The notes: generated from the letters alone by a model not told the origin. Shown: positions 6,056 through 52,354, numbered from the stretch's first letter. The stretch is DNA of 64,000 nucleotides from an uncultured Kiritimatiellota bacterium (GCA_944389545.1 CALXMT010000002.1:108645-172644), one strand, 5' to 3'. Made by a program: numbers and translations.

Positions 6056-6336
6056 CCTATTGCCTAAACAAAATCATACATTCAGTTGTCAAAGAGCAGC
6101 GCGTGAATGCTTGGTGAACGCACCACGCACCTTTGCCAAAGACCGTCATTCGTCCTCTCTAAATCAATGACAATCCTCTTGCCCAACGCAAGATACGCCA
6201 TCTTCCAGACCTGTCATTTGGTAACGAGATTTGAGGCGCACACCCTATCTCTTATCGGTCTAATAGCGTACTGCTCTACAATAGATATGCGCCATTCAAC
6301 CATTGGTGAACGGCGCACTTGCGGATGTGTTTACTG

Positions 6337-7206
6337 TCACAGCGCGGTAAAACAGTGAGACTCTAAGCAAAAGGCGTCAACATCCGATTTGAGGCTCTTG
6401 GCCGAGCAAGCGTTGTCCGTGTACAAGAAGAATGGGAGTGTTCCCTCATCTACCGTTTGCACGGGGCAAAGGTGCAACGCGGAAGCTTGCCGCTCTTTGG
6501 AAGAAGCACCAAGCGCATGGGCATTCGAGTTGGAGGGGTGAAGGTCTTTCTTCCTTCGCAACTCTTTCAGTTGGTCAGCCAAAAACGCTTGTGCGGACCC
6601 ACTCTCCATCTTACCTTCATAGAGGAAGATTTTGCGTGACCGCAATGTTCTCGCCCAGTCGCGGAAAGCTTGGGCCGTAGGCAATGCGCTCGGTTCCGCG
6701 AGCCTACCGAATCCGCGCGTGGCGCGGAGACCAAGCGCACCAACCCAAACGAAGGCTTGAACCGTCTCTTCTACTTGATCCCATAGGTTTGTCGGCACTG
6801 GGCGTACGGCTCGAATCTTGAGCGTGAACGTGCTTCCTGCGCCGATGTAATGTCCCTCTGTTGTACGGTAAACATTCTGCTTGTTGCCGGAGACCCGCGC
6901 GAAATACCCGATATAGCCCATCGGCGTGTCGTTGGGCAATGAGACAGCCCGCTGGTTGTTGACGATGTTGGTGTCTTCCACTCGCACGGCAATTGCCGAA
7001 GCGACGGCCCTAGATTCACCGTGGACACCGCCGAACAACACCTTTTCCTCTTCACGGACATCGCGATTTCCAGCCAAGACGCGGAACCACCAACGCAACG
7101 CTCCGCGGATGGAGGGCGCACGGATTTCAGGTTTGTTCTGGTCTGCCCCTGCAAGGAAGGTCGACGTGATGAAGGTCAGTTTTTTGGTGATTTCCTGTTC
7201 GTTCAT
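6337..7206 (-). CDS. cmr1: type III-B CRISPR RAMP subunit Cmr1
   Basis: 289 aa; KPEIRAPSIRGALRWWFRVLAG (Cmr1 RxxxRGxxRxW motif) and a glycine-rich loop GALGLRATRGFGRL. Last gene of the cmr operon. Confidence 0.7.
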   Translation of the reverse strand: MNEQEITKKLTFITSTFLAGADQNKPEIRAPSIRGALRWWFRVLAGNRDVREEEKVLFGGVHGESRAVASAIAVRVEDTNIVNNQRAVSLPNDTPMGYIGYFARVSGNKQNVYRTTEGHYIGAGSTFTLKIRAVRPVPTNLWDQVEETVQAFVWVGALGLRATRGFGRLAEPSALPTAQAFRDWARTLRSRKIFLYEGKMESGSAQAFLADQLKELRRKKDLHPSNSNAHALGASSKERQASALHLCPVQTVDEGTLPFFLYTDNACSAKSLKSDVDAFCLESHCFTAL

Positions 7207-8531
7207 GCTTGGCCTCCTTGCTTGGCTTTCATGGCCTCACGGATTGCCTTTTGTGCATCGCCGGGGAATCCTTTCACGCCATTGCGAATCTTGGCGTAGA
7301 CTTGCGCAGGAAGCGACCCGGCCTCCGAGAAGAGGGAGAGCATGGCTTCTCGACGTTCCGTGTTCGCCTTCAAGAATCCCTTGGCATCGTTAAGGATGCG
7401 TTTTTCGCTGTTCCAGGAGCGGCGCAGGATATCGACGGCGGATTCCTTAGGTAGGGCATTGTTGCACTTGGCTTTGAACTCGCGTAAGCGTTGGTTAATC
7501 GACTCATCTGCCTTTAAGGTTTCCGCTTCGGCCATCAGCGTTTCAGCCTGGCATTGCAGAGTGTGCGCGGTTTCGGGGGTAGGGGCCTCTTCCAAGAGCA
7601 TATTGACTGCCGTCCGGAGTGCGTCCAGACGGGCTCGGACTTGTTTGGCGGCAAGTACCTTTTCTCGCAACGCCTCGCGCTCTTGCGTGACGTTCTTGAA
7701 CCAACCGTAACCGGCGGCGGTTTTGGCGCCGGCGCCGTTCACGGTGATGGCCTCGATGAGCCACCGCTTGGCATCCGCCATGTTCGTTTCTTTGCAGTTA
7801 CGCAGGGGGACGAGAGGGAAGCAGAAGGTCACACCCGACTGGACAACAGGGAAGGCCTGGACATTGGGGTTCTCATCGTCCGTCGCTTGTGGCTTCTTTT
7901 CACCGTAATAGTCTTTGTGGTGGCAGGTGAGCACGTCGACTTCCAGATTCGCCTTGCCATCCGGGAAAGCACCCAAGAAGGCGACGCACCCGGCGTGATC
8001 TTGAACCTTTTTCCCTTCTTTCTCCCACATGGCCTTCAATTCCGCGTCCAATCCATCTTTGTCGTTGGTGGGATAGCCAAAGACCGTGGCGATGCGTTGG
8101 GCGATGGCCTTTTTCGTCTCGCCTTCTTCAGTCTTATTCCACTCGCACCAGGCTGCGTGGCGGGCGATGCCCTTCACCGCGCTCCCGGGCAGGTAGGGAT
8201 AGCCGAAGTGTGGGTGCAGGCAGATGTTCGCGTTCTCCAAGATGCCGCCGGCCAGGTTCACGGTCAGACGGCTCTGCAACTGTCCCCAGACACATTCAGC
8301 GCCTTTCGGCACGTCGTCCAAAAACGGTGTCTCCCCATACTTTTCCTGACACGCGCAGACCGCCTTCAATTCCTCCTGCTTGTTCCCACCTTCGCCGCCG
8401 ACCGTCACGAACTTCGTCAGGCGCAGCGATGGATTTTCGCATACGCGCTCGACGTCGCGCACGTTTTCCGGTGCACACCACCACGTCTTGGCCTTATCTC
8501 CCATCGCCATCCTCCTTACTGTTCTTTGCAA
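7203..8531 (-). CDS. cmr6: Cmr6 (Cas7-family RAMP) with ~150-aa C-terminal coiled-coil extension
   Basis: PYLPGSAVKGIARHAAW (Cas7 GSxxKG motif) and G-rich loop AKTAAGYGWF. C-terminal LREKVLAAKQVRARLDALRT...KAKQGGQA is extra relative to typical ~300-aa Cmr6. Confidence 0.65.
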   Translation of the reverse strand: MQRTVRRMAMGDKAKTWWCAPENVRDVERVCENPSLRLTKFVTVGGEGGNKQEELKAVCACQEKYGETPFLDDVPKGAECVWGQLQSRLTVNLAGGILENANICLHPHFGYPYLPGSAVKGIARHAAWCEWNKTEEGETKKAIAQRIATVFGYPTNDKDGLDAELKAMWEKEGKKVQDHAGCVAFLGAFPDGKANLEVDVLTCHHKDYYGEKKPQATDDENPNVQAFPVVQSGVTFCFPLVPLRNCKETNMADAKRWLIEAITVNGAGAKTAAGYGWFKNVTQEREALREKVLAAKQVRARLDALRTAVNMLLEEAPTPETAHTLQCQAETLMAEAETLKADESINQRLREFKAKCNNALPKESAVDILRRSWNSEKRILNDAKGFLKANTERREAMLSLFSEAGSLPAQVYAKIRNGVKGFPGDAQKAIREAMKAKQGGQA

Positions 8532-8904
8532 AACGGCGGAAGAAGGTCAGATAGGCCAGCACTTCTGCGGTGGTGACGCGCAACTGCATGGAGTCGGCTT
8601 TGGTCAACTCCTCGAACCACGTTGCCACATCCGTGGCTTTTCGCGCCGTCGCGTCATTGATGGCGGGGTCTTTCAAGTGGCGGAGGACGGCTTCGAAGAC
8701 TGCACGGTGTCCCTTCTTGTTGTCATCCGACAGCGCGAAGGCCATCGCGCCCAACAAGCCATGCATCACCACCATGCCGGGCACCTTCTTGGCGACGTCG
8801 CCGCCATCTTTGGCCTCAAACGTCTGGTCCTTGGACGCGGCGTAGGCGTTGAGCGCGCGGACTTGGTCGAGGCTTCTTTTGACTGCGGAGAGCGAAGCGA
8901 TCAT
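8494..8904 (-). CDS. cmr5: Cmr5 (Cas11 small subunit); start at internal MIASLS
   Basis: ~136 aa, all-helical small protein between cmr4 and cmr6. Its start abuts the cmr4 stop. Confidence 0.6.
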   Translation of the reverse strand: MIASLSAVKRSLDQVRALNAYAASKDQTFEAKDGGDVAKKVPGMVVMHGLLGAMAFALSDDNKKGHRAVFEAVLRHLKDPAINDATARKATDVATWFEELTKADSMQLRVTTAEVLAYLTFFRRFAKNSKEDGDGR

Positions 8905-9707
8905 TGCGCGTCCTCCTTGCAAGTGATGGTGCACCAACCGAGGCCCGTCGTGGCGTCTGCGCCGACTTGGAGCAGGTTATTTTCCTTCGTCAGTTGCTCT
9001 TGCAACTGCGTCAAGAGGGCGGGTTCATCGGCCATCAATTGCCCCACGAAGAGCGTTTCGGAGGGGACGTTCTCCTGCGCGAAGAGCGCACCGTTCGCGA
9101 CGGTACCGGTCGTGTCATCGATACGGTTGTGGTAGGCGATTTCGCAAGCGTTCTGCGCGAAGTGGGGCAGCACCGTGTCCGAGACCACGACCAGGCGGTT
9201 GTCCAAGGAACCCTGCCACAGCGTGTGCCCACAGAGCGGCTTCAAGGCGGCTTTCAGGTTTTCCGGCAAGTCTCCGGTGCGTTTCAGACGATACTCTTCC
9301 AACACCACATCGTTCTCAATGGCGACCAACCCTTCCGGCGCGAGCACGGCGTCTTCGCCCACTGCTGGGCAGTCAATGCCGAGCCGCGCCAAGGTCAGGG
9401 GCGAGGTCAACCACGCGAATCCACCCTTGGCCGAGCGCACGGGGAAGGCTACTAACCGAGCCTCGCCCACCAAAATCTTGCCGCGTCCGTTTTGTTCCCC
9501 AAAGAGCAAGTTTTGCGTCTGGGGATCGGTAAACAGGTCGCGCAACACGCCCTTCAGCGCAGAGCCGGGCACGGTCGGGAAGCCGGTGGCACGCTCGCGC
9601 AGGACGGGCAAGTCCACCACGCCCACAGAACTGCCACATCCCACATGGAGCGGCGTGCGCGTGAACAACGAAAAGGTCAGCGTCTTCATCTCAGTCTCCT
9701 CAATCAA
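8901..9707 (-). CDS. cmr4: Cmr4 (Cas7 backbone subunit)
   Basis: MKTLTFSLFTRTPLHVGCG...FPTVPGSALKGVLRDLF (Cmr4 signature) and G-rich loop GADATTGLGWC. Confidence 0.75.
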   Translation of the reverse strand: MIEETEMKTLTFSLFTRTPLHVGCGSSVGVVDLPVLRERATGFPTVPGSALKGVLRDLFTDPQTQNLLFGEQNGRGKILVGEARLVAFPVRSAKGGFAWLTSPLTLARLGIDCPAVGEDAVLAPEGLVAIENDVVLEEYRLKRTGDLPENLKAALKPLCGHTLWQGSLDNRLVVVSDTVLPHFAQNACEIAYHNRIDDTTGTVANGALFAQENVPSETLFVGQLMADEPALLTQLQEQLTKENNLLQVGADATTGLGWCTITCKEDAQ

Positions 9708-10845
9708 GGTGCAAATAGGAACACACGCCTAGGCCGAAACCCTTTTCGCCCAGGTCGGAACGTTGGCTCAGGTGCAGGACTTCAATCAACTTCGCAGCCT
9801 CGGCCGTGTCGGCGCATTCAAAGACGTAGCAAGCCCCTGCGGGGACGGCCAGTTCTGTGGGCTTGGCCCCATCCAGGGAGTCCCACCCTGAAAAGACCAC
9901 GGGAGTGCCGATGCGCGCGGCGATGAGGTGTGCGGAAGGGAAGGGTTTCAATTCCGCCTTGGCCCGTGCCCGCCAGGCCTTGCGCGATTCACCGGGGTGC
10001 CGCTCCACTTCGTTCATAGGAATCATTACGTGCCCGGCCTCATCGAGCCAGTTCGGATACCATCCCTTCATGAAGAGGGCCGGCGCCAAGAGCGTCCACC
10101 GCACGAACCGCGAGGGCGTTCCCTGCGGCAGAGCCTTCAAGCGCGCATCGAGGCTCGCACCTCGCACCGCGTCAAAGCGCACTGTGCCGCCCTGCCCGCC
10201 GAAACGCACGTCGTGTCCGGCCAACGTCGCGGACTTCTCCTGGCGCACATCGCACAGCATGGAGACACCCGGGGTCAACCGCAACGTCTCCATCCACCAC
10301 TGTCCGCTGAGTGCATTCTGGTCCCGCACCGACGTGTGCTTGGTGTCGTCAAGCGTTGTCCCTACGCGCGGTTCCCTGTGGTATAGTTCCGGGATTTTAG
10401 TCTCCACGCCTGCAACCGTCTCCCCGCGCAGATAACATGCGTATCCTTCGGTCGAAACCCATGCGGGGAGCGACTTCTTGCCTTCGGTGTTGTCCAGGAA
10501 ACCATGCGTCAGCGGCGCGGGCAGGTCTGTTGTCTCCTTTGTGATGGGGATTAGCTTCATGTCCCAGTCCAAAGGCCTTGGTAGGTAGAGCGTTCCCTCG
10601 CGCAGGGGGAAAGGGCCGCGAACCGCCAAGTCGGTCACGCTTCCATAGTGCTGAACCTCCGGTTTATCCGGGTCACCGAGCAACGTGTGGATGACGGCAC
10701 TGAAGAGCAGGTCCGGTCGCGGCCAATTGGCCCCGTGGCCCACCATCCGCAGGTTGGTACTTTGGCGTTTTTGGGTATCCATGGGTCGCGCGTCTCGGAA
10801 AAAGAGCACGTCCCGCGGCGTCAGTTCATAAGAGAGTGCATCCAT
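9700..10845 (-). CDS. cmr3: Cmr3 (Cas5-family subunit)
   Basis: 381 aa; N-terminal LTPRDVLFFRDARPM typical of Cmr3 and C-terminal glycine-rich loop GEKGFGLGVCSYL. Confidence 0.7.
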   Translation of the reverse strand: MDALSYELTPRDVLFFRDARPMDTQKRQSTNLRMVGHGANWPRPDLLFSAVIHTLLGDPDKPEVQHYGSVTDLAVRGPFPLREGTLYLPRPLDWDMKLIPITKETTDLPAPLTHGFLDNTEGKKSLPAWVSTEGYACYLRGETVAGVETKIPELYHREPRVGTTLDDTKHTSVRDQNALSGQWWMETLRLTPGVSMLCDVRQEKSATLAGHDVRFGGQGGTVRFDAVRGASLDARLKALPQGTPSRFVRWTLLAPALFMKGWYPNWLDEAGHVMIPMNEVERHPGESRKAWRARAKAELKPFPSAHLIAARIGTPVVFSGWDSLDGAKPTELAVPAGACYVFECADTAEAAKLIEVLHLSQRSDLGEKGFGLGVCSYLHLD

Positions 10846-12212
10846 TATTTATCCTCCCCCTGGCGCCACAGGAACGCCACACTCAGGAAAAGTCCCAGGA
10901 AGTCCTCCGCACGTGTTTTGCATTCCATCTTTAGGAAGGTTGCCAGCTTCGCCATGTCCAGCTTTCCTTTCATACCGTCCGTTCGCTCGATGGCGAAAGT
11001 CGTCTCCGCCAAGATAAGATCGGCCAAATCAGACGGCAACTCTCCTTTCAGTCCATAGGGCTGCAACAGTGCGGCCAACTTGTAGGGGAAACGCCCTGCC
11101 ACGTCCTTGCCGCATTGCGCGAAGGCATCAAAGAGGTCCAAACCGCAAGCGTCCCACGCTTCTCCATCTTGCTTGTATTTCCATTTGCTTCCCCACCATA
11201 GGATTTCACCTGACCGCTTGTGGATGGCCAGCGCCAACGCATTGCGGCCATAGGCCTCCTTTGCGCGGTGTTCCGCTTCCCGGGCGCGATTCACCAGTTC
11301 TTGCAAGGGCACGCTCTTGTGCCCGATGGCCACCCCCGCCGAGGCCGTCCCGCCGATCTGCGCGGAGAAATCTGCGGCCAACGCTTTCGCGCATGCCACA
11401 GCCAGATGCGCCGGCAACACTGCCAGCACATCGTCCCCGCCCACGTAGATGGATTGGCCTTGATAGTCTTTGATACGAGCTTCCGCCTTCGGGGCGAAGT
11501 TCAACAACAGTTCGCTGAATGCTTGGTGCTCCGCCTCGGTCTTGAAGGCACTCAAGCGCTTCCCCATTGTGTCGCCGTCCATCATGAGGACCGCCACGTA
11601 ATCGTCTTGTTTCACGGGGTCGTCAAAGGGAGCTTCTTCCGCGTGCAATCGCTTGATCAAGTTCATCGCGCCGAAGCCCAGCTTCTTGTCCAACACCGTC
11701 TCTTTGCCAGAGAGGATGTCCTTTGGATACTTGGTCGCCTCTTCCGGCCATGCGTCAAACTCGCGCGTGTTACGCCGTGCGGCCAACAATGCGCCGATGG
11801 TCTTGTAATCCTGACCCATATCGCCGGAGGGCTCCTCCAGGATTGCCCAAGAGGTTTGCGGGAAGGCCTTCACCTGCAGCAGAAAGGTCCCATCATGCGA
11901 CCACTCTGGGTGCACCTTCAATGCGCTTTCCGCCATTTCTCGCAACGCCGTTCGGAGCGCATCCGCCATCGCGCGCGCTGTTTCCGTAGCTGTTTCGCGC
12001 GGCACAAAGGCCAAGACGCGGTTCGGTAGACCAGGCCCCTCTCGTTTTGCCGGGAAGACCTCTTCGGCGCCCTCGGGCAATACCTTGAGCACTGTCTCTG
12101 TCAACTTTGACAACAAATCCGACCCCGCCCACAAATCTTGCGCGGTCTCGGCCTGTGCGATGAATCCCTGCACAGGCCCAAACTGAAAAAGCAACAACGC
12201 CTTGTCCTTCAC
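10845..12212 (-). CDS. cas10: Cas10/Cmr2, minimal form lacking HD domain, with intact GGDD cyclase palm (GTG start)
   Basis: 455 aa; LLLFQFGPVQGFIAQA (Cas10 post-HD motif), AVLMMDGDTMGKRL (palm metal-binding D) and IYVGGDDVLAVLP (GGDD). No H-HD-H-D motifs. Confidence 0.7.
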   Translation of the reverse strand: MKDKALLLFQFGPVQGFIAQAETAQDLWAGSDLLSKLTETVLKVLPEGAEEVFPAKREGPGLPNRVLAFVPRETATETARAMADALRTALREMAESALKVHPEWSHDGTFLLQVKAFPQTSWAILEEPSGDMGQDYKTIGALLAARRNTREFDAWPEEATKYPKDILSGKETVLDKKLGFGAMNLIKRLHAEEAPFDDPVKQDDYVAVLMMDGDTMGKRLSAFKTEAEHQAFSELLLNFAPKAEARIKDYQGQSIYVGGDDVLAVLPAHLAVACAKALAADFSAQIGGTASAGVAIGHKSVPLQELVNRAREAEHRAKEAYGRNALALAIHKRSGEILWWGSKWKYKQDGEAWDACGLDLFDAFAQCGKDVAGRFPYKLAALLQPYGLKGELPSDLADLILAETTFAIERTDGMKGKLDMAKLATFLKMECKTRAEDFLGLFLSVAFLWRQGEDK

Positions 12213-12225
12213 GGCAAGCCTCCTC

Positions 12226-12684
12226 TCAAATCCGTTTCATCCACCTCAGACGCAACACGTGCCACCCTGTGATTGCCGACGGCGCCGCCGCCTGGCCCGG
12301 GGCCGGTCGGCCTCCCCCTGCCACATCCGGCGACAACACATAACATTCCGCGAAGCATTCCCCGTCCAATTCCGGCAATCCCTCCGCGTTCAACCGCAAT
12401 GCCGGGCGCGGCACCCGCGGCTTCAACGTTCCCGCCGACACCCCCAGAAAGGCCTCCGCCGCACCCTGCGTCTCCGCGTGTCCCCAGAACGACCGAACCA
12501 CCGCCCCAGACGCCAACGCCTCCCGCAAGGTCTCCACCCTTATTTCCTCGATCTCCACACGCCACCCCCGCACCAACGTCAACGGGAAGGTATTTCCAAT
12601 CAACAACGTCCCACTCACGCCTTCGCCTCCCACTTTCCTGGCCTCCAGTTCCGGATGGCCTGGACGACATAATCGTTTGGGCAT
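12226..12684 (-). CDS. hypothetical protein (152 aa) between card1 and cas10; coding status uncertain
   Basis: ATG-initiated ORF in a locally GC-rich 400-bp gap. Overlaps the card1 3' end by ~70 nt and has no recognisable motif. Several alternative frames are also open. Confidence 0.3.
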   Translation of the reverse strand: MPKRLCRPGHPELEARKVGGEGVSGTLLIGNTFPLTLVRGWRVEIEEIRVETLREALASGAVVRSFWGHAETQGAAEAFLGVSAGTLKPRVPRPALRLNAEGLPELDGECFAECYVLSPDVAGGGRPAPGQAAAPSAITGWHVLRLRWMKRI

Positions 12685-13811
12685 GGCATCGGTAACTCTA
12701 GCAACATCAAATTACCGGCATCTTCGATTCGGGTCAATAGGTTTTGATAATCGGTCTCTACGTTTCCTTTGGTGTGCCCCAAGTTCTTGGAGGATGTCAC
12801 CAAGATTCCGCGTCCAAATGTACCACCATACTCATCAACAATATCACTGAATCGCTGAATTTGCTCGGAACTCACATACCCAGACTTACACTCTACAAGG
12901 TAAAGGCAGAATCCATCCGTGAATGAAACGTCAAATTCTTGCCTAGGCACACTTGTATCCTCAAAGGAGATACTTGCACCCCGTTGAAAATCATAACATC
13001 CTGGCAACCGTTTCACTTGACAGAGTACGTATGTCTCCAACCAAAGCCCTGTCACAAAACGGCAGGTCTCGATATCCCCTTTTGTCTGGCGCACGTTACT
13101 CAACAATCTCACACACCGCTCCGTTGCGGCACGGTCACGTGTTTTGTCCAAGAAATGTTTGGCTAAAGCGTCCAAATCTCCAGATAATACAGACTTAGCA
13201 TATTTTTGCATATCGCCTAGATGGTCGCTCATCTTACCGATATAACCACGGAATCCCCATCGATGTGCGCAAAGGGCACCTGCCAATTCCTCTTCTTCTT
13301 GAGAAACACCCCACTCGCCTGGGACGAAGATATCGGAAGAGCAGAGGCGCACGAATTGTTCTACGGTGGAGAATCCGCGTCTCAGATGCACTTCGCGGTC
13401 TCCACCCACATCAAGTACCCTGCGCGACTGTGTGTCTACATAAAAACACGATAATCCCGTCCAAGCATTAACTAAAGACAATGCCATCAGCTTGGTTCCG
13501 CCCGTGACGTTCGCGGCCACGGATTGCCCCTTATACTCCTCGTGTAGAGCAACAAAATCTTCTCGTAGACGCCGTTGGTTATACGAATCCACCAACTTAA
13601 TCGCTATCGGCATTTCGGCAGTGGCAAACACTGACACTAATCGTTTCGCGACCACCTCTGTCTTTTCTGTTGCCAATAAGATATGCGTTTTGGCCGGAAC
13701 ATTCAGAATGGCGAATGCCACCGGTAATTCCTGTTCGCCAATCAAATGCAATACGACATCAAACACAGACAGATTCTCTCCAAGCTTACTCATCGATCGC
13801 TCCTTGCTCAT
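12615..13811 (-). CDS. can2: CARF-domain + PD-(D/E)xK nuclease, Card1/Can2-like cyclic-oligoadenylate-activated effector
   Basis: ~398 aa; N-terminal Rossmann-like CARF with VTGGTKLMALSLVN. C-terminal EFDVSFTDGFCLYLVECKSG supplies the D...ExK catalytic triad. First gene of the cas operon next to the array. Confidence 0.65.
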   Translation of the reverse strand: MSKERSMSKLGENLSVFDVVLHLIGEQELPVAFAILNVPAKTHILLATEKTEVVAKRLVSVFATAEMPIAIKLVDSYNQRRLREDFVALHEEYKGQSVAANVTGGTKLMALSLVNAWTGLSCFYVDTQSRRVLDVGGDREVHLRRGFSTVEQFVRLCSSDIFVPGEWGVSQEEEELAGALCAHRWGFRGYIGKMSDHLGDMQKYAKSVLSGDLDALAKHFLDKTRDRAATERCVRLLSNVRQTKGDIETCRFVTGLWLETYVLCQVKRLPGCYDFQRGASISFEDTSVPRQEFDVSFTDGFCLYLVECKSGYVSSEQIQRFSDIVDEYGGTFGRGILVTSSKNLGHTKGNVETDYQNLLTRIEDAGNLMLLELPMPCPNDYVVQAIRNWRPGKWEAKA

Positions 13812-13847
13812 CAAACATCGTTAATCCTACCCCAAACTCCCAAAAAA

Positions 13848-16394
13848 GTCAACCATCCTCGCCTTTCGGTTGAAGGATGGTTGCGAGTCGTACGGGAAGT
13901 AGGACGACCCCGATGCCCTGTCGCAACGGGCTCTTGGCTGAGGGATGGTTGCGAGCTAAGTCATTGGTACAAGGAAGTCGAGTTGTCGCAACCGCCTTTC
14001 GGCTGAGGGATGGTTGCGAGGGCACGGCTCCCCAAGGAACCTACGTTCTTCAAGGTCGCAACCGCCTTTCGGCTGAAGGATGGTTGTGAGGGAGGGCAAG
14101 CTCTGCGCTCGACTCTCCATCTACGTCGCAACCGCCTTTCGGCTGAAGGATGGTTGTGAGACCATGCCAGAAAGGTATGGAGAGCTCGCCACAAGTCGCA
14201 ACCGCCTTTCGGCTGAAGGATGGTTGTGAGCTTAGTCGAGAAGACTAAGAAATTTTGGAAGGAAGTCGCAACCGCCTTTCGGCTGAAGGATGGTTGTGAG
14301 ATGGTCTCACGGCCTCAACCCGCAGCCCTGCAAAGTCGCAACCGCCTTTCGGCTGAAGGATGGTTGTGAGTCATCATCCACAACGGCTGCCTCACCCGCG
14401 CCGAGTCGCAACCGCCTTTCGGCTGAAGGATGGTTGTGAGTTACATCCAATGGATATGGATTTGATGAGGCTGTGTCGCAACCGCCTTTCGGCTGAAGGA
14501 TGGTTGTGAGACAAGGTCCAAAGAACGATTCATAAGGTCCATGTGTCGCAACCGCCTTTCGGCTGAAGGATGGTTGTGAGTTAAAGGTGTGGACCCCAGC
14601 TCCCTCTCGGAGTCTGTCGCAACCGCCTTTCGGCTGAAGGATGGTTGTGAGCCTATGGCTTTGACGAAAACGCCATCTTCCACATGTCGCAACCGCCTTT
14701 CGGCTGAAGGATGGTTGTGAGTTAAAGGTGTGGACCCCAGCTCCCTCTCGGAGTCTGTCGCAACCGCCTTTCGGCTGAAGGATGGTTGTGAGCCTATGGC
14801 TTTGACGAAAACGCCATCTTCCACATGTCGCAACCGCCTTTCGGCTGAAGGATGGTTGTGAGACTGATGCAGATTGAACTCGCCGCCCTGATGGAGTCGC
14901 AACCGCCTTTCGGCTGAAGGATGGTTGTGAGATGGGTGCCACCAAACCGCTTTCGACTTCTTTGAGTCGCAACCGCCTTTCGGCTGAAGGATGGTTGTGA
15001 GTGTGCGGCTATCCCGTGTTTATCTGTCAGCTGACGTCGCAACCGCCTTTCGGCTGAAGGATGGTTGTGAGCCAACAGAACCCGTTTCATAGATGAGAGC
15101 TCCAGTCGCAACCGCCTTTCGGCTGAAGGATGGTTGTGAGTTCTTGGCCTGGTCGCGTTTGTCGGAACGGATGTGTCGCAACCGCCTTTCGGCTGAAGGA
15201 TGGTTGTGAGTGCGGGGGCCTTGAGCGTCGCCGAGCTTGTCTGTGTCGCAACCGCCTTTCGGCTGAAGGATGGTTGTGAGAGCTCAACGCCCTCCTCAAC
15301 GCGCGCGCCGAGGAGTCGCAACCGCCTTTCGGCTGAAGGATGGTTGTGAGCACGGAGCGCCGGAGGCGCCCAAAAATCGCAGATGTCGCAACCGCCTTTC
15401 GGCTGAAGGATGGTTGTGAGGCCGAAAAGAAGCCCGAGCCCGCCGCCAAGCCTTGTCGCAACCGCCTTTCGGCTGAAGGATGGTTGTGAGACGTCAAGCC
15501 AGTTCGTCGTCGCGTTCTCCTGCGTGTCGCAACCGCCTTTCGGCTGAAGGATGGTTGTGAGTCGGAGGATGGCACCCTCCAGTTGCGCAATCTGGGTCGC
15601 AACCGCCTTTCGGCTGAAGGATGGTTGTGAGGTCACGGAAGAGACCGAGACGCTCTACGAGAGCGTCGCAACCGCCTTTCGGCTGAAGGATGGTTGTGAG
15701 TTGGCGACACCGTCCCCGTCTCCGCCACCGAGACGTCGCAACCGCCTTTCGGCTGAAGGATGGTTGTGAGTGGCCGGCGTGACCGCCAACGACGCCTTGG
15801 TCCGGTCGCAACCGCCTTTCGGCTGAAGGATGGTTGTGAGTCGTCTCCAATGCAGTTCAGTGTCGTGGCTCAAGTCGCAACCGCCTTTCGGCTGAAGGAT
15901 GGTTGTGAGCCGTCCAGAGGCGCGTCGTCCGGCCCTGGTCTGTCGCAACCGCCTTTCGGCTGAAGGATGGTTGTGAGCGGAAAAATCCGCGGCCTCGGCT
16001 CCACCGACGCGTCGCAACCGCCTTTCGGCTGAAGGATGGTTGTGAGTTTCCCCATCGGGCCTCGCCACGATGGGCACCAGGTCGCAACCGCCTTTCGGCT
16101 GAAGGATGGTTGTGAGTCCCGCTCGACGTGCTCATGCTTTGGTTTTCCGAGTCGCAACCGCCTTTCGGCTGAAGGATGGTTGTGAGGGGAATGCCGCATG
16201 ATGCCCTATGACGTTTGCGCGTCGCAACCGCCTTTCGGCTGAAGGATGGTTGTGAGTTGGAGTTAATGGAGACCACTCCGGTGGACATGGTCGCAACCGC
16301 CTTTCGGCTGAAGGATGGTTGTGAGCGCCAAGGCGCAGAAGCTCGCCGAGGAGGCGGGGTCGCAACCGCCTTTCGGCTGAAGGATGGTTGTGAG
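13848..16394 (-). CRISPR. CRISPR array, 37 repeats of 36 bp (GTCGCAACCGCCTTTCGGCTGAAGGATGGTTGTGAG), 36 spacers of 29-37 bp; leader at 16.4-kb end, degenerate repeats at 13.85-kb end
   Basis: Direct repeats every 69-72 bp. The three leftmost repeats are mutated (trailer end) and an AT-richer leader lies right of 16394. Inferred transcription is toward lower coordinates, co-directional with the cas genes. Confidence 0.95.
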
Positions 16395-16620
16395 TATATC
16401 AAAAAATCGGGTTGATTGCATGGGGGTTATTTGGCGATTTGCGCGAACCTCTGGGGAAAAGGGAGATTTTGTTTGGGATGGGCAGGCGTATTTTTTTTGG
16501 AAGGGAGAGACAACTTCTTCTGTGATAAGCAATTCTTATGTTTGTGCGGCGTGCGCGAACCTCCCAGGGTTTGAAGGGGGGTGATGGGTTCGCGCAGGGA
16601 AGGGGCGGAGAGGCCTTTTA
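16395..16620 (-). promoter_or_regulatory. CRISPR leader with internal GCGCGAACC(T)C repeats
   Basis: AT-rich start (TATATCAAAAAATCGGG...) and three copies of GCGCGAACCyC in direct or inverted orientation. Adjacent to the youngest repeat. Confidence 0.45.
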
Positions 16621-16631
16621 GAAGGGGTGTT

Positions 16632-16768
16632 GGCGGACCACTATAGGGTCTCGGTGTGGACCCCTATAAGGGTTGACCGCGGACCCCTATAAGGGTTGGC
16701 CGCGGACCACTATAGGGTCTCATCTGCGACCACTATAGGGGTCGGGGCGGACCCTTATAGGGTCTGAA
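16632..16768. repeat. iteron cluster A: six tandem ~22-bp units with near-palindromic core GACCACTATAGGGTC / GGACCCCTATAAGGGTTG, preceded by AGGGGTGTTGG
   Basis: Read directly from the sequence; cognate cluster at 47262..47400. Confidence 0.8.
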
Positions 16769-16782
16769 GGGCGGCTGGCGCC

Positions 16783-16855
16783 GCCCCGGAGAACGGAGAA
16801 CAGAGAACGGAGAACGGAAACGCCCCTGCGGGGCGACGGGCGAAGCTCCGAGAAG
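16783..16855. repeat. GAGAACR heptad tandem repeat + CCCCTGCGGGGCGACGGGCG module (mosaic intergenic repeat family)
   Basis: Same module at 22622-22735, 25995-26125, 33045-33215, 53487-53600 and inverted at 53700-53765. Confidence 0.7.
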
Positions 16856-16985: not shown

Positions 16986-17031
16986 GAACCAAACTTCTAA
17001 ACTTCCAAACTTCTAAACTTCTAAACTTCCA
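16986..17031. repeat. AAACTTCY octamer tandem repeat
   Basis: aacttctaaacttccaaacttctaaacttctaaacttcc; related copies at 26245-26275, 33476-33510 and 52600-52630. Confidence 0.7.
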
Positions 17032-20048: not shown

Positions 20049-22469
<2,421 letters not shown>

Positions 22470-22506
22470 GGGTTGACAGACGCTCCCTTTGGGGTTTCGG
22501 TGGATG

Positions 22507-22524
22507 TTATCACGGATGTGATAA
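22507..22524. promoter_or_regulatory. perfect inverted repeat TTATCAC-GGAT-GTGATAA upstream of rpoD (candidate operator)
   Basis: 7-bp arms, about 40-60 bp upstream of the rpoD start codon in an AT-richer stretch. Confidence 0.3.
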
Positions 22525-22621
22525 ATTGCCTATAATTTTAGCAAAACCGCATGCCATTCGGCAAAACTTTTAGTGCATTTCCAATCGTCTCCGGGGAATT
22601 TCCACAAAGACGATTTGGGCG

Positions 22622-22860
22622 GCTTATGCCGCCCCGGAGAACAGCGAACGGAGAACAGAGCGTGCAGGCCCAGAGGGCCAAACCTTCCACGGCCACGGAA
22701 CGCCCCTGCGGGGCGACGGATGGAGTTCCCAAGAAAATGATAAGGCACGAAACGGAGGGCGTCGGTCGCGGTCAGCGGTGAAGCCGTCGTCCAATCAGCT
22801 AATCAGCTGGATGCTCCGCTAGAGCACCCTTTCTTCGCGGTTTCCATTTTCCCGGACACA
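22622..22860. repeat. mosaic intergenic repeat: GAGAACR heptads + partial MITE-like element with one TIR (CGCGGTTTCCATTTTCCCGGACA)
   Basis: Shares modules with 25995-26262, 33045-33215 and 52462-52795. Confidence 0.65.
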
Positions 22861-22863
22861 ATT

Positions 22864-22895
22864 CATCCCTAGGGGCACGCGTGCCCTTAGGGATG
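22864..22895 (-). terminator. hairpin CCCTAGGGGCACGCGTGCCCTTAGGG downstream of second sigma gene
   Basis: Imperfect palindrome directly after the stop codon at 22913. Confidence 0.5.
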
Positions 22896-22912
22896 GGATG
22901 ATCGGCTGGGCA

Positions 22913-24580
22913 TCAGCGTTCGCCGAGGAAGCCGTCGAGTTTCTTGATGCGCGAGGGGTGACGGAGCTTGCGCAGGGCCTTGGCTTCGATTTGGCGGATG
23001 CGCTCGCGCGTGACGTTGAATGCCTTGTTGACCTCGTCGAGGGTGTGCACGACGCCGTCCGTGAGGCCGTAACGCATATCGAGGACCTCGCGATCGCGCT
23101 CATTGAGAACAACGAGTACTTCGCGCAGACGCTCTTTGAGTTGGGCGAAGGCGGCGGCATCCTCGGGGCGCTCGGCGTCTTCGCCGTCGTCAACGGGGCT
23201 CTGCAGGGAGCTGGGTTGCTGGGCCATGCGGCAGATGTTGCGGATGCGTTCGACGGGCATGCCCATTTCCTCGGCGGTCTCCTCCGGAGTGGGCTCGCGG
23301 CCGAGTTCCTGGAGAAGCTTCTTCTGCGCACGGAGGAGCTTGTTGATGGTCTCAATCGTGTGCACGGGGATGCGGATGGTGTGGGCTTGGTCGCCGGTGG
23401 CACGGGTGAGGGTCTGGCGGATCCACCAAGTGGCGTAGGTGGAGAACTTGTAGCCGCGCTTGTACAGGTCCACGAACTTCTCGACGGCCGTCATGAGACC
23501 GGTGTTACCCTCTTGGATGAGCTCGAGGAGGCTGAGACCGCGGTTCATGAACTTCTTGGCGATGGAGACGAGAAGGCGGAGGTTCGCCTCGATCACTTTA
23601 CTTCGGTTCTGGGTAATCAAGTGGAGTGCTTGGCGAAGCTCTTTGAACTTCTCCATGAAGAGGTCAGCGGGCATGCCGAGGGCCTGTTCGGCCTCATCTC
23701 GGGCGGCTTCGGCCTTGGCGACATGCTGGGCCTTAGTCTTGCTCTCGGCCTTCTGGGCCTTTTTGAGAGCCGCGATGGCGCTGGCGTAGGGCTTGTAATA
23801 GCACTTCTCCGCTTCGATGCAGATGTCCTCCAGTATCTTTTGCTTGAAGTGGAGCGAGTCGTACTTGGTACGCAACGCCTCGCACAAGGCTTCGATTTGC
23901 TTGTCAGCCTTGTCCAGGGCGTCGGTGTCCTCGGGATTGAGATTGGCGCGGGCCATGTAGGCCTCGGCCATGCGGTCGCCCAAGCGGTTGAGCGCCTCTT
24001 GCTCCGGGTGCATCGTCTCGACGTACTCGTCGCGTTTCTTGTCGGTCTTGGCGACCACGCGGTTGAACCTCTCGCGGCCGGCCTCCAGGTCGCTCAAGAC
24101 TTGGGCGTAGAGGCGCGGGGCCATGGGCAACTGGTTGAAGACCTCGAAGATGACCCTTTCGCCGGCCTCGATGCGCTGGAAGATTTCCACCTCCTGCTCG
24201 CGCGTCAGTAGGGGCACTTTGGAAATTTGGCGCAGGTAGATGCGGATGGCGTCGTCGCAGTGATCCTCGCGTTTGGCGGAGGCCTCCCCCTTATATTCAT
24301 CGAGCGCGTCCAAATCTTTCTGGTCGTGGGCCCTCTTGGCTTCTTTTTCGGATTCGTTGAAGACCGCGCGCAGGACAGACCCTTCGCACAGACCGTCGAG
24401 GGACTCCTCGTCGTCGGCCATGTCCTCCGCGTCGGTGTACGCATTGTCTAGCGATTCCTTCTCGAGGTCCATCCTCGAGTCGGCGACGGCAGGCTTTTGG
24501 GGCTCAGTTTCCGGTTTGTCTTGCTTCGTAGCCATAGGTGAGAAACGCTCCTTGGGGGTGTTCGGTTGGTTTTGCCACAA
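22913..24580 (-). CDS. second sigma-70 family factor, RpoD paralog (tandem to rpoD)
   Basis: 555 aa; C-terminal 300 aa nearly identical to the upstream RpoD (…[34 protein letters not shown]) with a divergent N-terminus. Confidence 0.85.
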
Positions 24581-25974: not shown

Positions 25975-26265
25975 TCACAAAAAGGTAATCGTGGGGCACC
26001 TCGGGTGCCCCGGAGAACGGAGAACAGAGAACGGAGAACGGGAGGGACGCTGACGCGTCCCGGAGAACAGAGAACAGAGAACAGAGAACAGAGCGCGCGG
26101 CAAGCGCGCGACGGGTGGGGTTTCTGGAAATTGACCAGACGCGAAACGGAGGGCGGCGGGCGCGGTCAGCGGCGGAGCCGCAGAGCGACCGATGGAGCCC
26201 GAGGCGTTTCGCGCCCACAGTTGCGTCTTTGCGGTCTCATTTCAATGAAAGACCAAGCCTCTAGA
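25975..26265. repeat. mosaic intergenic repeat: GGGGCACC-TCG-GGTGCCCC hairpin, GAGAACR heptads, GCGCGCGGCAAGCGCGCGACGGGTGGGG module, partial MITE-like element with TIR
   Basis: Near-identical modules at 53487-53600, 33045-33215 and 22622-22860. Confidence 0.7.
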
Positions 26266-47213: not shown

Positions 47214-47261
47214 TACTTACGCGACGCCTCTGCCCTGGAAAAGGGGTGTTGGAGAAACCCT

Positions 47262-47400
47262 TAAGGGTCCGAGGTGAGACCCTATAGTGGTCGGGGTCGA
47301 GACCCTATAGTGGTCGGGGTCGAGACCCTATAGTGGTCCATGGTCGACCCCTATAGTGGTCCAGAACGAACCCTTAAGGGGTCCGCAACAGACCCCTTGC
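47262..47400. repeat. iteron cluster B: six tandem ~22-bp units (core GACCCTATAGTGGTC, flanking AACCCTTAAGGGGTCC), preceded by AGGGGTGTTGG
   Basis: Cognate of the cluster at 16632-16768; followed 12 bp later by a solo MITE TIR at 47412-47455. Confidence 0.8.
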
Positions 47401-47640: not shown

Positions 47641-47701
47641 CTAGCAGTGTGATAAAATAGGGCCAAAGCTCTAGACGGGACTTTTGAGTGAGGACGCGAC
47701 C

Positions 47702-48184
47702 ATGAGAAGAAAAGAACGTGAAGTGACAGATCTCAACGAGATTAAGGATATTCTGACACGGGCCGAGGTTCTCCGGGTCGCCTTGAACAACGGCGACTAT
47801 CCCTATCTCTTCCCGGTGAACTACGGATTTGTCATGGATGGCGCACAGTTGGTGCTCTTCTTTCATGGGGCGAAGGAGGGTGCCAAACACGCCATTATCG
47901 CGCGGGACAACAAGGTCACCTTTGAGGTCGATTGCGGCCATGCGCTGATGCAACCGCTCGGCGAGGAATCCTGCACTAGCAGTTTCGCCTATGAAAGCGT
48001 CATCGGAACCGGCACGATTGAAAAGGCCGCGGACTCAGAAAAAGAAGCCTTACTGCCCCTGTTGCTGGAACATTATGGAATCACGGCAAAGCATTTCAAT
48101 CCCGTACATCTGGCCAATACGGTCGTCTACAAAATCACGGCAACGACCTACACGGCCAAGCGCAGAGTCAACGACCGACTCTGA
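47702..48184 (+). CDS. pyridoxamine 5'-phosphate oxidase-family FMN-binding protein (Nim-like); start at MRRKEREV
   Basis: ILTRAEVLRVALNNGDYPYLFPVNYGF and the split-barrel PNPOx pattern. Confidence 0.7.
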   Translation: MRRKEREVTDLNEIKDILTRAEVLRVALNNGDYPYLFPVNYGFVMDGAQLVLFFHGAKEGAKHAIIARDNKVTFEVDCGHALMQPLGEESCTSSFAYESVIGTGTIEKAADSEKEALLPLLLEHYGITAKHFNPVHLANTVVYKITATTYTAKRRVNDRL

Positions 48185-48512
48185 TAGATGCCGATAAAGT
48201 GTAAACCCGCAAAGCGACCGGTGTTACTCCATCCGGCGTCGCGTGTACTGGTGTCTTCGCGGAAAGACTTCCTCGAATGCTCTTGTGCTTGACGGGGTGG
48301 TGCGGGATGATATAAACTAACCACATCAGTACGAAGGGACTCGTAAATGGCGTTCACTGCAATGTGTTTGAAGCTTGGCGTTGTGGCGATGCTCACGGCG
48401 CAGGGCAACGCCGTGCGGAGGGCGTTTGTGTGGGATTTCACGAAGCCGGTTGCCACACTGCCCTTTTCGTTGAGATAGGTGCAGTGGGTGAAGTCAACGT
48501 CACGACTGTTGA

Positions 48513-49661
48513 TTGGTGTCACTGATGAAGAAGTCGCAATCACGGAGGACGCATCGAGGTAAAGTGGCCTCGTTGTTGCTTCGTGTCGTGCTTGTCATCT
48601 TTGCTTTGTGTGCAACGATAACGCTCTATCTTGTACATGACGAGACGATGCGTGAACGCCGCAATGCACCCCAGCGGGAAGTCGAGGTGCACGAATTGTT
48701 GCAGGTTCGTGAGGGAGGTGTTTTTCCACCACGGGTACAGGACCAACCTTGTCTGCGGACAAGTGATGGTGAGATTGTGCATTGGGAGGCTTCATTGGGA
48801 GAGTTGGCGGAGTTTTGCCGCCAGGGATTGCCCTTTAGGATGAACGTGTATGAGATGTATGGAGGGCTGTATTATTATTCTTCTTATGCAGCCAGAGGGT
48901 GGTTGATTTTCTCGATGTCCTTGTTTCTTTTCTCTTTACACATTCTGTTTTGGCCTGTCAAACGGTCGAAAGTGGAACCCGTCGCTTGTATATCCAAGCG
49001 GGGAGCTTCCATTGGCATGGCCGTTACGGACAAGATAACGTTTGACCTGTCTCAACACGAGCGTCGTCGCCGTATTGTGTTCCAAGTAGTGATTCAGGGT
49101 GCCTTTGCCGTCCTCTTCGTCGGGTGGATGACGTATGCATGGGGATGGTCTTGGTTATTGTTGGCGGTAGCGCTTCCGGTTTTACTGAGCACGGCGCTTG
49201 TTTGTTGGCCAGACGCTCTCGTCCGTTTCATAGGTGGGGCGTTACTCCTATGCGTTCCCTTTTTGGCAGAGGCTTTCGGACACGGTTTGTATTGGCGGGA
49301 AACGACGCGTATTGAAGCAATTCCGCGATATGTGCGCTACGACATGAGCCATTCTGCCGACAAAAAGCATGGGGCGCCTGAGGAGGTTTACGAAGTGCTC
49401 TTCAGCTATGATTGGGCGGGAAGAGAACGTTATGGGTTTATACGCCTTCGCTCAAATCAAGCCGCAGAATGTGCTTTGATCCGTCAGTTGAGAGGGGGTC
49501 ACCTTCAATTGTTGCGTGATCAGTCGCCTGAGGGTCGCTTTTTTGCCTTTGACGCGGCTTGGGCCATCAGCCAACTTGTCAGTGGGGCGGGCGCGCTCTT
49601 TTGCTTCTTGTGCGGAGGTGCCATGCTCTTGCTGGGGCAGAAGAAGCGGAGGACCGAATGA
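48513..49661 (+). CDS. hypothetical polytopic membrane protein (low-GC island)
   Basis: 382 aa with at least 5 TM segments and no recognisable motif. Local GC is ~42-50% versus ~67% background. Confidence 0.45.
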   Translation: MVSLMKKSQSRRTHRGKVASLLLRVVLVIFALCATITLYLVHDETMRERRNAPQREVEVHELLQVREGGVFPPRVQDQPCLRTSDGEIVHWEASLGELAEFCRQGLPFRMNVYEMYGGLYYYSSYAARGWLIFSMSLFLFSLHILFWPVKRSKVEPVACISKRGASIGMAVTDKITFDLSQHERRRRIVFQVVIQGAFAVLFVGWMTYAWGWSWLLLAVALPVLLSTALVCWPDALVRFIGGALLLCVPFLAEAFGHGLYWRETTRIEAIPRYVRYDMSHSADKKHGAPEEVYEVLFSYDWAGRERYGFIRLRSNQAAECALIRQLRGGHLQLLRDQSPEGRFFAFDAAWAISQLVSGAGALFCFLCGGAMLLLGQKKRRTE

Positions 49662-49893
49662 GACGGAACGCGCGGAACCAGAACATTGCCATCGCCCCCT
49701 TCGGCGCTGTCATCCGTATCCTTCAGGCATTTGAGAGGGTACACCAATGATGTACGTAAAAGAACTTGCCCCAAAAGAGTGGACGCTTCGATTCTGGTTG
49801 CATGGGCCACTGGCAACCCTTCGGGAGTGGAGGCATGAACGGGTCGAGTAGCATGGAAGACCGCAAAGATGGGTTTATGAGTGGAAGGACTAC

Positions 49894-50376
49894 TTGTTCA
49901 ACCTTATCGCAGGACTTCCTATTTTCCTGCTAGGATGTGGTCTATTCTATTATCATGCCTGTGTGGAAGAGAGTATCGCGGTTGGCGTTGTGGTGGCTGC
50001 TATCCCTTTTTGCGGAGGGGCGTGGATGGTTCTGGCTCCTCTTCGCTCTTGGCTTGGGCATTTCGCCCTTCATTATTATCTGACGCCATCAACAATCCTT
50101 GTCGTTTTCAGGTTTCTCTTCTTCAGCGTTTCCCTGTCCGCCCCAAAGCAAAGGATTGGCTTTGTTCTGATTGATCGGTATGAGGAGGTGGCCGTCATCA
50201 AGTTCGCGAATCTTTCGTTTACCCCCGTTGATAGACTTGATGATATCACCGTAGAACTGAAGTTTTATGGGTTGACCTTGTCTGATTGCCTGGCGTTGCG
50301 GTCTTATTTCAGCGGTAAGGCGTTTTATGTCTCCGGTGAGCATCCGGATGAGTATAAGGCGTACCGCGGCGGTTGA
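49894..50376 (+). CDS. hypothetical membrane-anchored protein (low-GC island)
   Basis: 160 aa with two N-terminal TM helices then a small soluble domain. Confidence 0.4.
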   Translation: MFNLIAGLPIFLLGCGLFYYHACVEESIAVGVVVAAIPFCGGAWMVLAPLRSWLGHFALHYYLTPSTILVVFRFLFFSVSLSAPKQRIGFVLIDRYEEVAVIKFANLSFTPVDRLDDITVELKFYGLTLSDCLALRSYFSGKAFYVSGEHPDEYKAYRGG

Positions 50377-50500
50377 CAAGTGTTGGTGAGCGGTGTATCC
50401 TATGAAACATGAGGATGATGTCTATGGGAACCGCATCAAGACGGCGACCTTCTTGGATAAGGAAGGGAATGGGACATCGTGGTTGAATAAGTGAGGCGGA

Positions 50501-51718: not shown

Positions 51719-51883
51719 TCAGAAGAAGCAACGAACATGTCTATGCTGACACGTTTTGGAGTTTCGTCAAATCGCGCAATGATACGGTCGCCTCGCAGTA
51801 CAACGATATGAACAATCTGCTCGGCCACCCTGTGTGGATGTGCTAAAGCAAGGGTGATGGGATAACCAAGGAGGAGCGGTGAT

Positions 51884-52354
51884 ATGCACGTTTACCTCAA
51901 GTATGGGTTTGTGCTTTTCCCTACAGAGCAGATGAAGTTGACGAGATTGTCGAGCGAAGGTGTTTATTTGTACAGTGGTTGCATCTTATCCCATCTGTTT
52001 GGAAACGCTCGGGGTCGGTCATGGGTTGTATTTTCACGTAATCGTGTACGTCTTCATGGTGTGACACCGTTCAATAGCGGGAGCATGGATTACTGTTTTT
52101 CCAAAAGGGAGATTCGATCCATCTATACAAACGATTCGCCCTCCGTTCCTTTCTTGGGGACGGGCTATGGGCTCGATTCGAGGCCTCCGTTTCTGACAAG
52201 AATGTATTATTTTTATACCGCTCCAGCGCTCAGATATCGATGGCCTATGCGGTACAGGTTTCTGATCATCGAGATGGTATCCTTCTATATCCTCATGTTT
52301 GTCGAGTCTGAACGTGAAGTGCGTCTATATCAAGAGCAGCTCAAAAAACGATAA
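51884..52354 (+). CDS. hypothetical protein (low-GC island)
   Basis: 156 aa, Tyr/Arg-rich, C-terminal hydrophobic helix. Confidence 0.35.
   Translation: MHVYLKYGFVLFPTEQMKLTRLSSEGVYLYSGCILSHLFGNARGRSWVVFSRNRVRLHGVTPFNSGSMDYCFSKREIRSIYTNDSPSVPFLGTGYGLDSRPPFLTRMYYFYTAPALRYRWPMRYRFLIIEMVSFYILMFVESEREVRLYQEQLKKR

Follow-up and report, generated by a model that had tools for sequence, protein, structure and literature searches.

How does a type III-B CRISPR-Cas locus defend its host when its Cas10 subunit is without an HD nuclease domain and when neither cas6 nor cas1 and cas2 are found around it? This question is raised by a 64,000-nucleotide stretch of DNA from an uncultured Kiritimatiellota bacterium (GCA_944389545.1 CALXMT010000002.1:108645-172644; hereafter referred to as the window), in which a CRISPR array (positions 13852–16394) and eight co-directional minus-strand genes (13814–6337) make up such a locus. 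Our results indicate that it is a genuine and apparently functional III-B system, ordinary in kind, and very probably a chromosomal Cmr island that defends purely by cyclic-oligoadenylate (cOA) signalling and carries a ring nuclease as its off-switch.

The eight open reading frames (ORFs) follow one another with small overlaps or gaps, in the order card1/can2, a 130-residue ORF, cas10, cmr3, cmr4, cmr5, cmr6 and cmr1. Profile searches, which a preliminary description of this DNA had proposed as its check, placed seven of the eight in the Card1/Can2, Cas10/Cmr2, Cmr3, Cmr4, Cmr5, Cmr6 and Cmr1 families, with Pfam, NCBIfam and PADLOC in agreement on each. Cmr4, Cmr6 and Cmr1 exceeded the NCBIfam cut-offs; Cmr3 and Cmr5 exceeded those of Pfam and stayed below the NCBIfam equivalog cut-offs. 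These searches, together with repeat searches, bore out the coordinates, gene order, repeat count and gene calls of that description. The genes are as follows, in the order of transcription.

12615–13814, minus strand: card1/can2 (399 aa), CARF sensor plus PD-(D/E)xK nuclease, identified by Pfam, padloc and PDB matches.
12226–12618, minus strand: crn2-like ring nuclease gene (130 aa; orf152 of the preliminary description), likely start GTG at 12618, with a GTGA stop/start overlap with card1.
10845–12212, minus strand: cas10/cmr2 (455 aa); TIGR02577, 9e-41 (score 140 against a cut-off of 79); palm2 PF22335, 4e-32.
9700–10845, minus strand: cmr3 (Cas5 family, 381 aa); PF09700, 1e-24 over the full length; TIGR01888, 2e-13.
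8901–9707, minus strand: cmr4 (Cas7 backbone, predicted target RNase); TIGR02580, 2e-50; gene callers start at ATG 9689, giving 262 aa.
8494–8937, minus strand: cmr5 (Cas11 small subunit); PF09701, 2e-15; 136 aa in the gene calls of the identical contigs L059–L062.
7203–8531, minus strand: cmr6 (442 aa); TIGR01898, 5e-29; padloc Cmr6, 2e-31.
6337–7206, minus strand: cmr1 (289 aa), the final gene of the operon; TIGR01894, 3e-13; padloc Cmr1, 3e-19.

For comparison, we assembled 34 III-B loci from bacteria of the Planctomycetota–Verrucomicrobiota–Chlamydiota (PVC) group, with fetched flanks of up to 10 kb on each side. The order cas10-cmr3-cmr4-cmr5-cmr6-cmr1 is conserved in them, so that the terminal position of cmr1, which had been called atypical, is the rule in this group.

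The Cas10 subunit consists of Palm1, Palm2 with a GGDD motif at residues 258–261, and a C-terminal helical domain. It begins at the Cmr2_N motif (residues 6–46), which in long Cas10 proteins comes after the HD domain, and its residue 1 aligns with residue 17 of the HD-less Cas10 of PDB entry 9arw; the earlier statement that this Cas10 lacks the HD nuclease domain was therefore correct. Residues 1–159 and 193–346 align with residues 17–177 and 323–495 of 9arw, respectively. Because 9arw 177–323 is matched by just 34 residues here, the protein also lacks about 110 residues of the inter-Palm region. Nevertheless, D212, G213, D214 and the G258-G259-D260-D261 segment are invariant among 40 Cas10 homologues, and an AlphaFold2 model (pLDDT 91) superposes on 9arw_A with predicted TM-scores of 0.83 and 0.65 relative to the query and the target, respectively. 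The short form is populous: the matches listed comprise 120 clusters, all of 399–506 aa and one of them named Cas10/Cmr2 by NCBI. Relatives of the same clade have either this form or one of 800–920 aa. The literature describes III-B Cas10 proteins of about 600 aa that have no HD domain and are thought to act through signalling only (PMC8682760).

The effector proposed in the preliminary description was likewise borne out. The first gene of the operon matches PF09002 Card1_endonuc with 36 bits (cut-off 26.4), PF23400 CARF_Card1 with 30.5 bits (cut-off 24.6) and padloc CARF4--CARF_PDDEXK with 6e-44. Its best PDB match is Can2 (7bdv; 6e-9), with the ExK motifs of the two proteins in register (LVECKSG against VIECKTR). 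Both its family membership and the cA4-type ring nuclease encoded next to it predict that it is activated by cyclic tetra-adenylate (cA4).

That ring nuclease is the product of the second gene, which lies between card1 and cas10. The preliminary description had rightly listed a gene there and had left it without identity; its fold, a candidate catalytic histidine and its context now supply one. The reading frame at 12618–12226 has 39 homologues, down to 45% identity and mostly of 122–144 aa, and the 4-nt overlap with card1 is similar in related contigs; an alternative 153-residue frame (12209–12670) was rejected as glycine-rich and unconserved. None of the homologues is named by any source, and a precomputed Pfam domain is on record for only one of the 39 (P0038, PF08960). 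The family shares the motifs LIGNTFPL, SFWGH and VLSPDY..G.RP and has invariant S43, W45, G46, H47 and R71, with H47 of the GH motif present in 32 of the 32 aligned members. An hhalign comparison of the family with gp29 gave E = 0.002, and in all three alignments made (against gp29 and AFV3-109, by HMMER and hhalign) the GH motif met the GH that holds H47 of AcrIII-1, the catalytic residue of that enzyme (10.1101/778746). An AlphaFold2 monomer model (pLDDT 91) was then compared with known structures by Foldseek; the top 16 matches were all DUF1874 proteins, including STIV B116, AcrIII-1, AFV3-109 and Csx1-Crn2, which assigns a DUF1874 fold to the model. Csx16 (Cas_VVA1548) was rejected as an alternative identity, as 0 of 32 members matched PF09652 at E ≤ 1.

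The genomic context of the family agrees with this assignment. Homologues were found in 48 GTDB species, all of them PVC-group bacteria, and in nearly all of the 48 loci, wherever enough flanking DNA was available, the gene lies inside or beside a type III module. A search of 1.84 billion representatives returned 180 clusters at 50% identity. The domain is also found naturally fused to Csx1-type CARF-HEPN proteins (P0197, P0199), to Can2-type CARF-PD-(D/E)xK proteins (P0290, P0213) and to another CARF protein, the set of fusion proteins comprising P0197, P0199, P0290, P0213, P0166 and P0253. By analogy with Csx1-Crn2, these fusions look like self-limiting effectors. Thus, the predicted fold, the catalytic histidine and the context, though not membership by the Pfam model, lead us to predict that the 130-residue protein is a diverged Crn2-type ring nuclease.

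Other arrangements of the domain were also seen. In P0184 it is joined to a DegT aminotransferase, probably through a fusion unrelated to these or an error of gene calling. In L001, L033, L039, L042, L046 and L053 the gene is also linked to a second type III module, with a 525-residue Cas10, large RAMP fusions and Cas6; another linkage is to a conserved accessory cassette (c6-c13/c26-c7-c8), of which only c8 and c13 have CARF similarity and c6 and c7 are without a Pfam or PADLOC match.

The array, like the genes, is read from the minus strand. It was delimited by tandem-repeat and direct-repeat searches and by explicit fuzzy matching.

13852–16394, minus strand: CRISPR array of 37 repeats of 36 nt and 36 spacers; minus-strand repeat CTCACAACCATCCTTCAGCCGAAAGGCGGTTGCGAC.
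16395–16630, minus strand: putative CRISPR leader of approximate extent, about 240 bp of AT-richer DNA beside the perfectly conserved repeats.

Thirty-four of the 37 repeats are identical, and the spacers are mostly of 34 nt. The degenerate repeats, at 13852, 13920 and 13985 (9, 6 and 2 substitutions, respectively), all lie at the low-coordinate end, which abuts card1. The array also contains a tandem duplication, with 99% identity at 14538–14819, of a 141-nt unit made up of two adjacent spacers and two repeats. Because the array ends only 37 bp from the card1 start, there is no room for a leader at that end. In the related III-B arrays, oriented by the cas genes of the 34 loci, nearly all repeats have GCCGAAAGGC and then about 9 nt, the last three of them GAC (e.g. 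ATTGAGAC, ATTGCGAC and GTTGCGAC); to judge from their sequence, these 3′ ends are the classical form of the type III 8-nt handle. The window repeat ends in GUUGCGAC, and the array adjoins the operon co-directionally. The degenerate trailer end, the lack of room for a leader near card1, the AT-richer far end and the repeat 3′ ends of the relatives together assign transcription to the minus strand, in agreement with the preliminary description. On that strand, the array lies upstream (5′) of the operon, and not after the genes as had been stated.

Spacer content varies between otherwise matching contigs. L060 and L061, with a 100% identical Cas10, have 0 of 17 spacers in common with the window, and L062 shares only the three trailer-end, hence oldest, spacers; Card1 (376 aa) and Cmr1 (269 aa) of L060/L061 also differ in length from those of the window. 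Since contigs with identical Cas10 have wholly different spacers, spacer turnover occurs in this lineage, and this argues for a working adaptation module elsewhere. The differences in spacers and in protein length point to a fast turnover of the array or to recombination within the species. The spacers had no match in the rest of the window with up to five mismatches.

The absence of cas1, cas2 and cas6 from the window, as claimed in the preliminary description, was confirmed by two approaches. None of the three genes was found when most of the ORFs called outside the cas locus, exclusive of five large high-GC3 ORFs of 428–636 aa, were scanned with Pfam and padloc. A six-frame translation (829 segments of at least 40 aa) was then searched in full with hidden Markov models (HMMs) of PVC Cas1, Cas2 and Cas6: the best E-values for Cas1 and Cas2 were above 1, and the best for Cas6 was 0.098, falling on Cmr4. 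To the left of the window, reached via BamA, we found only 5.5-kb contigs with housekeeping genes (OmpH, HisI and a glycosyltransferase). The absence had been presented as unusual, but it is normal for type III systems, most of which use Cas6 supplied in trans (Makarova 2025, PMC12669027), and VmeCmr is a characterised example of an HD-less III-B system that has no adaptation genes (PMC8682760).

Among the relatives, cas1-cas2 stand beside the III-B module in 22 loci, some of them with a reverse transcriptase, and for the 34 related III-B loci Cas6 was not among the matches listed in the fetched DNA. The Cas6 genes found in the same set of genomes all stand next to a type III module of another kind, in which the repeat hairpin differs (L001). 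In the arrays of L009–L056 (e.g. L013:11107-11989 and L049:15847-18455), the GCCGAAAGGC mini-hairpin, about 9 nt from the repeat 3′ end, is almost always identical, in contrast to the freely diverging 5′ half of the repeat. Conserved clusters c3, c4 and c5 of these loci were rejected as new genes because they are antisense shadow ORFs of NE0113, Cas2 and Cas1, and long 'Cas2' ORFs were treated as over-extended, the longest (L012) overlapping cas1 in another frame.

Taken together, these features suggest the following course of events. The array would be transcribed on the minus strand from the leader at about 16395–16630, toward the cas operon. The precursor of the CRISPR RNAs (crRNAs) would be cut within each repeat, immediately 3′ of the GCC-GAAA-GGC mini-hairpin, leaving an 8–9-nt 5′ handle, (G)GUUGCGAC, by a nuclease encoded outside the window, most likely Cas6 in trans. 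The crRNA would be loaded into the Cas10-Cmr3-Cmr4-Cmr5-Cmr6-Cmr1 complex, and on binding a complementary transcript Cmr4 would cleave the target RNA. Its catalytic aspartate is conserved, because VVDLPVLRE in this protein aligns with VVDQPIQRE of Pyrococcus furiosus Cmr4 (9e-37), the Asp of VVDLP falling on D26. Target binding would also lead the two Palm domains of the HD-less Cas10 to make cOA, predicted to be cA4; a cA4 circuit is the most likely one because Card1/Can2 and Crn2 are both cA4-specific families according to the literature. cA4 may then bind the CARF dimer of Card1/Can2 and activate its PD-(D/E)xK nuclease against DNA and RNA, until the Crn2/AcrIII-1-type ring nuclease, encoded right after card1, degrades the cA4 and resets the system. 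New spacers would come from Cas1-Cas2 encoded elsewhere.

Several results weigh against parts of this scheme. The Pfam model PF08960 (DUF1874) did not match the 130-residue protein at E ≤ 1 and matched only one of 32 family members (E = 0.008); a profile search of the PDB returned only AFV3-109 and SIRV1 ORF114 (AcrIII-1), at sub-threshold E-values of 0.16 and 1.3; and no counterpart of the C-terminal loop residues of AcrIII-1 could be mapped. Exact or degenerate repeat scans of GTDB genome contigs and of Joint Genome Institute (JGI) metagenome contigs returned nothing, neither a second array nor trans cas6, cas1 or cas2. No protospacer match was obtained when the whole array was compared by blastn with 50,697 phage records, or when three leader-proximal spacers were scanned against IMG/VR. 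The marginal DUF1874 similarity would fit a protein that has this fold without a ring nuclease role, serving as a cA4-binding sponge or regulator or as a structural accessory of the Cmr complex. So would the residue after G108, which is Glu in most members (G-x-E) and Ala in the sub-clade of the window, and DUF1874 proteins without an assigned role do exist, e.g. STIV B116. We nevertheless consider such a role quite improbable, given the invariance of the histidine that is catalytic in AcrIII-1 and the fusion of the domain to cA4-activated effectors exactly as in the characterised Csx1-Crn2, which is reported to be a self-limiting fusion (PMC7293037). For the missing genes, it could be argued that what remains is an orphan interference module in decay, which stopped functioning after the loss of its adaptation and processing genes, and the three degenerate repeats, the duplicated spacers and the lack of protospacer matches could be read in the same way. 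This seems scarcely credible for a locus whose eight ORFs are all intact and keep their lengths in many samples, whose catalytic motifs are preserved and whose other 34 repeats are identical; moreover, the wholly different spacers of contigs with identical Cas10 point to ongoing acquisition or turnover.

A further explanation concerns processing only, namely that crRNAs of the whole PVC III-B clade mature without Cas6, by a housekeeping RNase or a Cmr subunit that recognises or cuts the near-invariant GCC-GAAA-GGC tetraloop hairpin. It would account for the score of 0 of 34 related loci with Cas6 in the fetched DNA, about 15 of which carry cas1, cas2 and an array, and for the restriction of recognisable Cas6 in these genomes to a different module with a different hairpin. 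A hairpin identical in nearly all arrays of distant PVC bacteria, within otherwise diverged repeats, fits a conserved factor that does not co-evolve with them, and no conserved gene that could be a novel Cas6 emerged, c3, c4 and c5 being shadow ORFs. On the other hand, most type III loci are without cas6 and use one in trans (PMC12669027), the 3′ end of the window repeat is a canonical Cas6-type 8-nt handle (GUUGCGAC, AUUGAGAC), and the absence of Cas6 holds among the padloc matches listed, where weak single Cas6 matches are possible. Because the comparison covered fetched flanks of at most 10 kb, we regard maturation without Cas6 as unlikely, and retain a trans Cas6 as the most likely maturation nuclease.

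The surroundings of the locus are those of a bacterial chromosome. Housekeeping genes flank it: one side has BamA and DnaB, and the other has glycogen phosphorylase, an RRM protein, two sigma-70 paralogues and MetK. The cas genes have a G+C content at third codon positions (GC3) of 0.51–0.78 against 0.83–0.93 for their neighbours, which marks the locus, placed between dnaB and glycogen phosphorylase, as a chromosomal island. The insertion site is the same in closely related contigs, and more than 20 public contigs encode an identical Cas10. The host is a PVC-group bacterium, and the nearest relatives of the locus are in Lentisphaeraceae and Kiritimatiellia, where the closest GTDB species with a homologue of the small ORF are also found. 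Within the operon, Cmr6 has a normal RAMP core at residues 86–279 and a C-terminal tail of about 160 residues, which can be aligned over its whole length only in the closer relatives and varies in the others. A promoter scan gave sites no more numerous than in shuffled sequence, and none was identified; an Rfam scan of the 64 kb gave no family at the gathering score, with only chance microRNA-like matches on the array. One further feature lies just past the cmr1 stop codon.

6287–6318, minus strand: terminator-like hairpin with a 12-pair stem, from a consensus scan; its T-tail is weak, which makes it only suggestive.

Some features of the window outside the locus are also recorded here. About six tandem copies of a 23-bp repeat, with the palindromic core GGACC(A/C)CTATA(G/A)GGGTC, lie just beyond the leader (16633–16765), and about six copies of the same repeat lie in the opposite orientation 30.5 kb away, beside unrelated genes (47254–47395). 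The core had six matches against 0.03 expected, and the motif also occurs upstream of the array in the close relatives L004, L005, L008 and L062. These copies could be a dispersed intergenic repeat or protein-binding sites; mobile-element ends were ruled out, as the intervening DNA is housekeeping. Intergenic tandem repeats of the heptamers CGGAGAA/GAGAACA (three sites) and of the octamer AAACTTCT (one site) were found at 16787–16822, 26011–26093, 53499–53530 and 16991–17029. At 20049–24580, two adjacent sigma-70 paralogues of unusual length (806 and 555 aa) stand beside the 124-residue RRM protein, an arrangement kept in the relative L004. A second stretch of low GC3 (0.51–0.66; GC 0.50–0.53) at 47684–52354, in which the ORFs at 48513–49661, 49894–50376 and 51884–52354 are without a Pfam or PADLOC match, may be another acquired island.

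As a CRISPR locus, this system adds little, since HD-less, signalling-only III-B systems with Can2/Card1 and with Cas6, Cas1 and Cas2 in trans have already been described. The useful additions are the unnamed gene, predicted to be a diverged PVC-wide Crn2, the minimal Cas10, and a clade without detected cis cas6. A census in 2025 reported Crn2 in only seven prokaryotic loci and used this rarity to argue for a viral origin (PMC12409355); a diverged branch of 180 clusters and 48 PVC GTDB species, missed by current HMMs, would change that count of seven cellular loci, and the same branch supplies natural Can2-Crn2 and Csx1-Crn2 fusions for study. The Cas10 of 455 residues is about 150 residues below characterised HD-less Cas10 and yet keeps every cyclase residue, which offers a minimal scaffold for structural work or for type III signalling diagnostics. 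Finally, 34 loci in which cas6 was not found, nearly all sharing one hairpin, make a concrete, testable case for crRNA processing in Cas6-less type III systems. If processing there were indeed independent of Cas6, the PVC clade would be a second, bacterial-lineage-wide case of it, and its signalling system, made complete by the minimal Cas10 and a lineage-specific Crn2, would be very compact.

Among known systems, DtCmr Cas10 (9arw) is the best match to the window Cas10 by sequence (4e-24) and by predicted structure (TM-score 0.83), and it is also an HD-less III-B protein; however, it has 612 residues against 455, is covered to about 65% (target TM-score 0.65) and shows GGED in the alignment where the window protein has GGDD. 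Can2 of Thioalkalivibrio sulfidiphilus (7bdv) and Card1 of Treponema succinifaciens share with the window effector one CARF and one PD-(D/E)xK domain, a size of about 370–400 aa and the aligned ExK motif, although sequence similarity to 7bdv is low (E = 6e-9). The small protein differs from AcrIII-1/Crn2, including Marinitoga Csx1-Crn2 (6scf, 8y7g), in being missed by the Pfam DUF1874 model, in having motifs of its own and in belonging to a branch found, among GTDB species, only in PVC-group bacteria. For processing, the nearest parallel is the III-Bv system (CRISPR3) of Synechocystis sp. PCC 6803, a III-B-type locus also without cas6, cas1 and cas2, whose crRNAs are reportedly matured by host RNases, RNase E in particular (Behler et al. 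2018); the window repeat, in contrast, looks like a Cas6 substrate. VmeCmr differs in its Cas10 of about 600 aa, compared with 455 aa and a further loss of about 110 residues between the Palm domains here; in its use of cyclic triadenylate (cA3) with NucC and its own Cas6f, compared with Card1/Can2 and a ring nuclease without cas6; and in being prophage-borne, whereas the window locus lies between chromosomal housekeeping genes. The two systems nevertheless have in common a Cmr1-6 complex, a Cas10 that has no HD domain and keeps its cyclase residues, a locus without adaptation genes, and the interference by signalling alone that would be expected from them.

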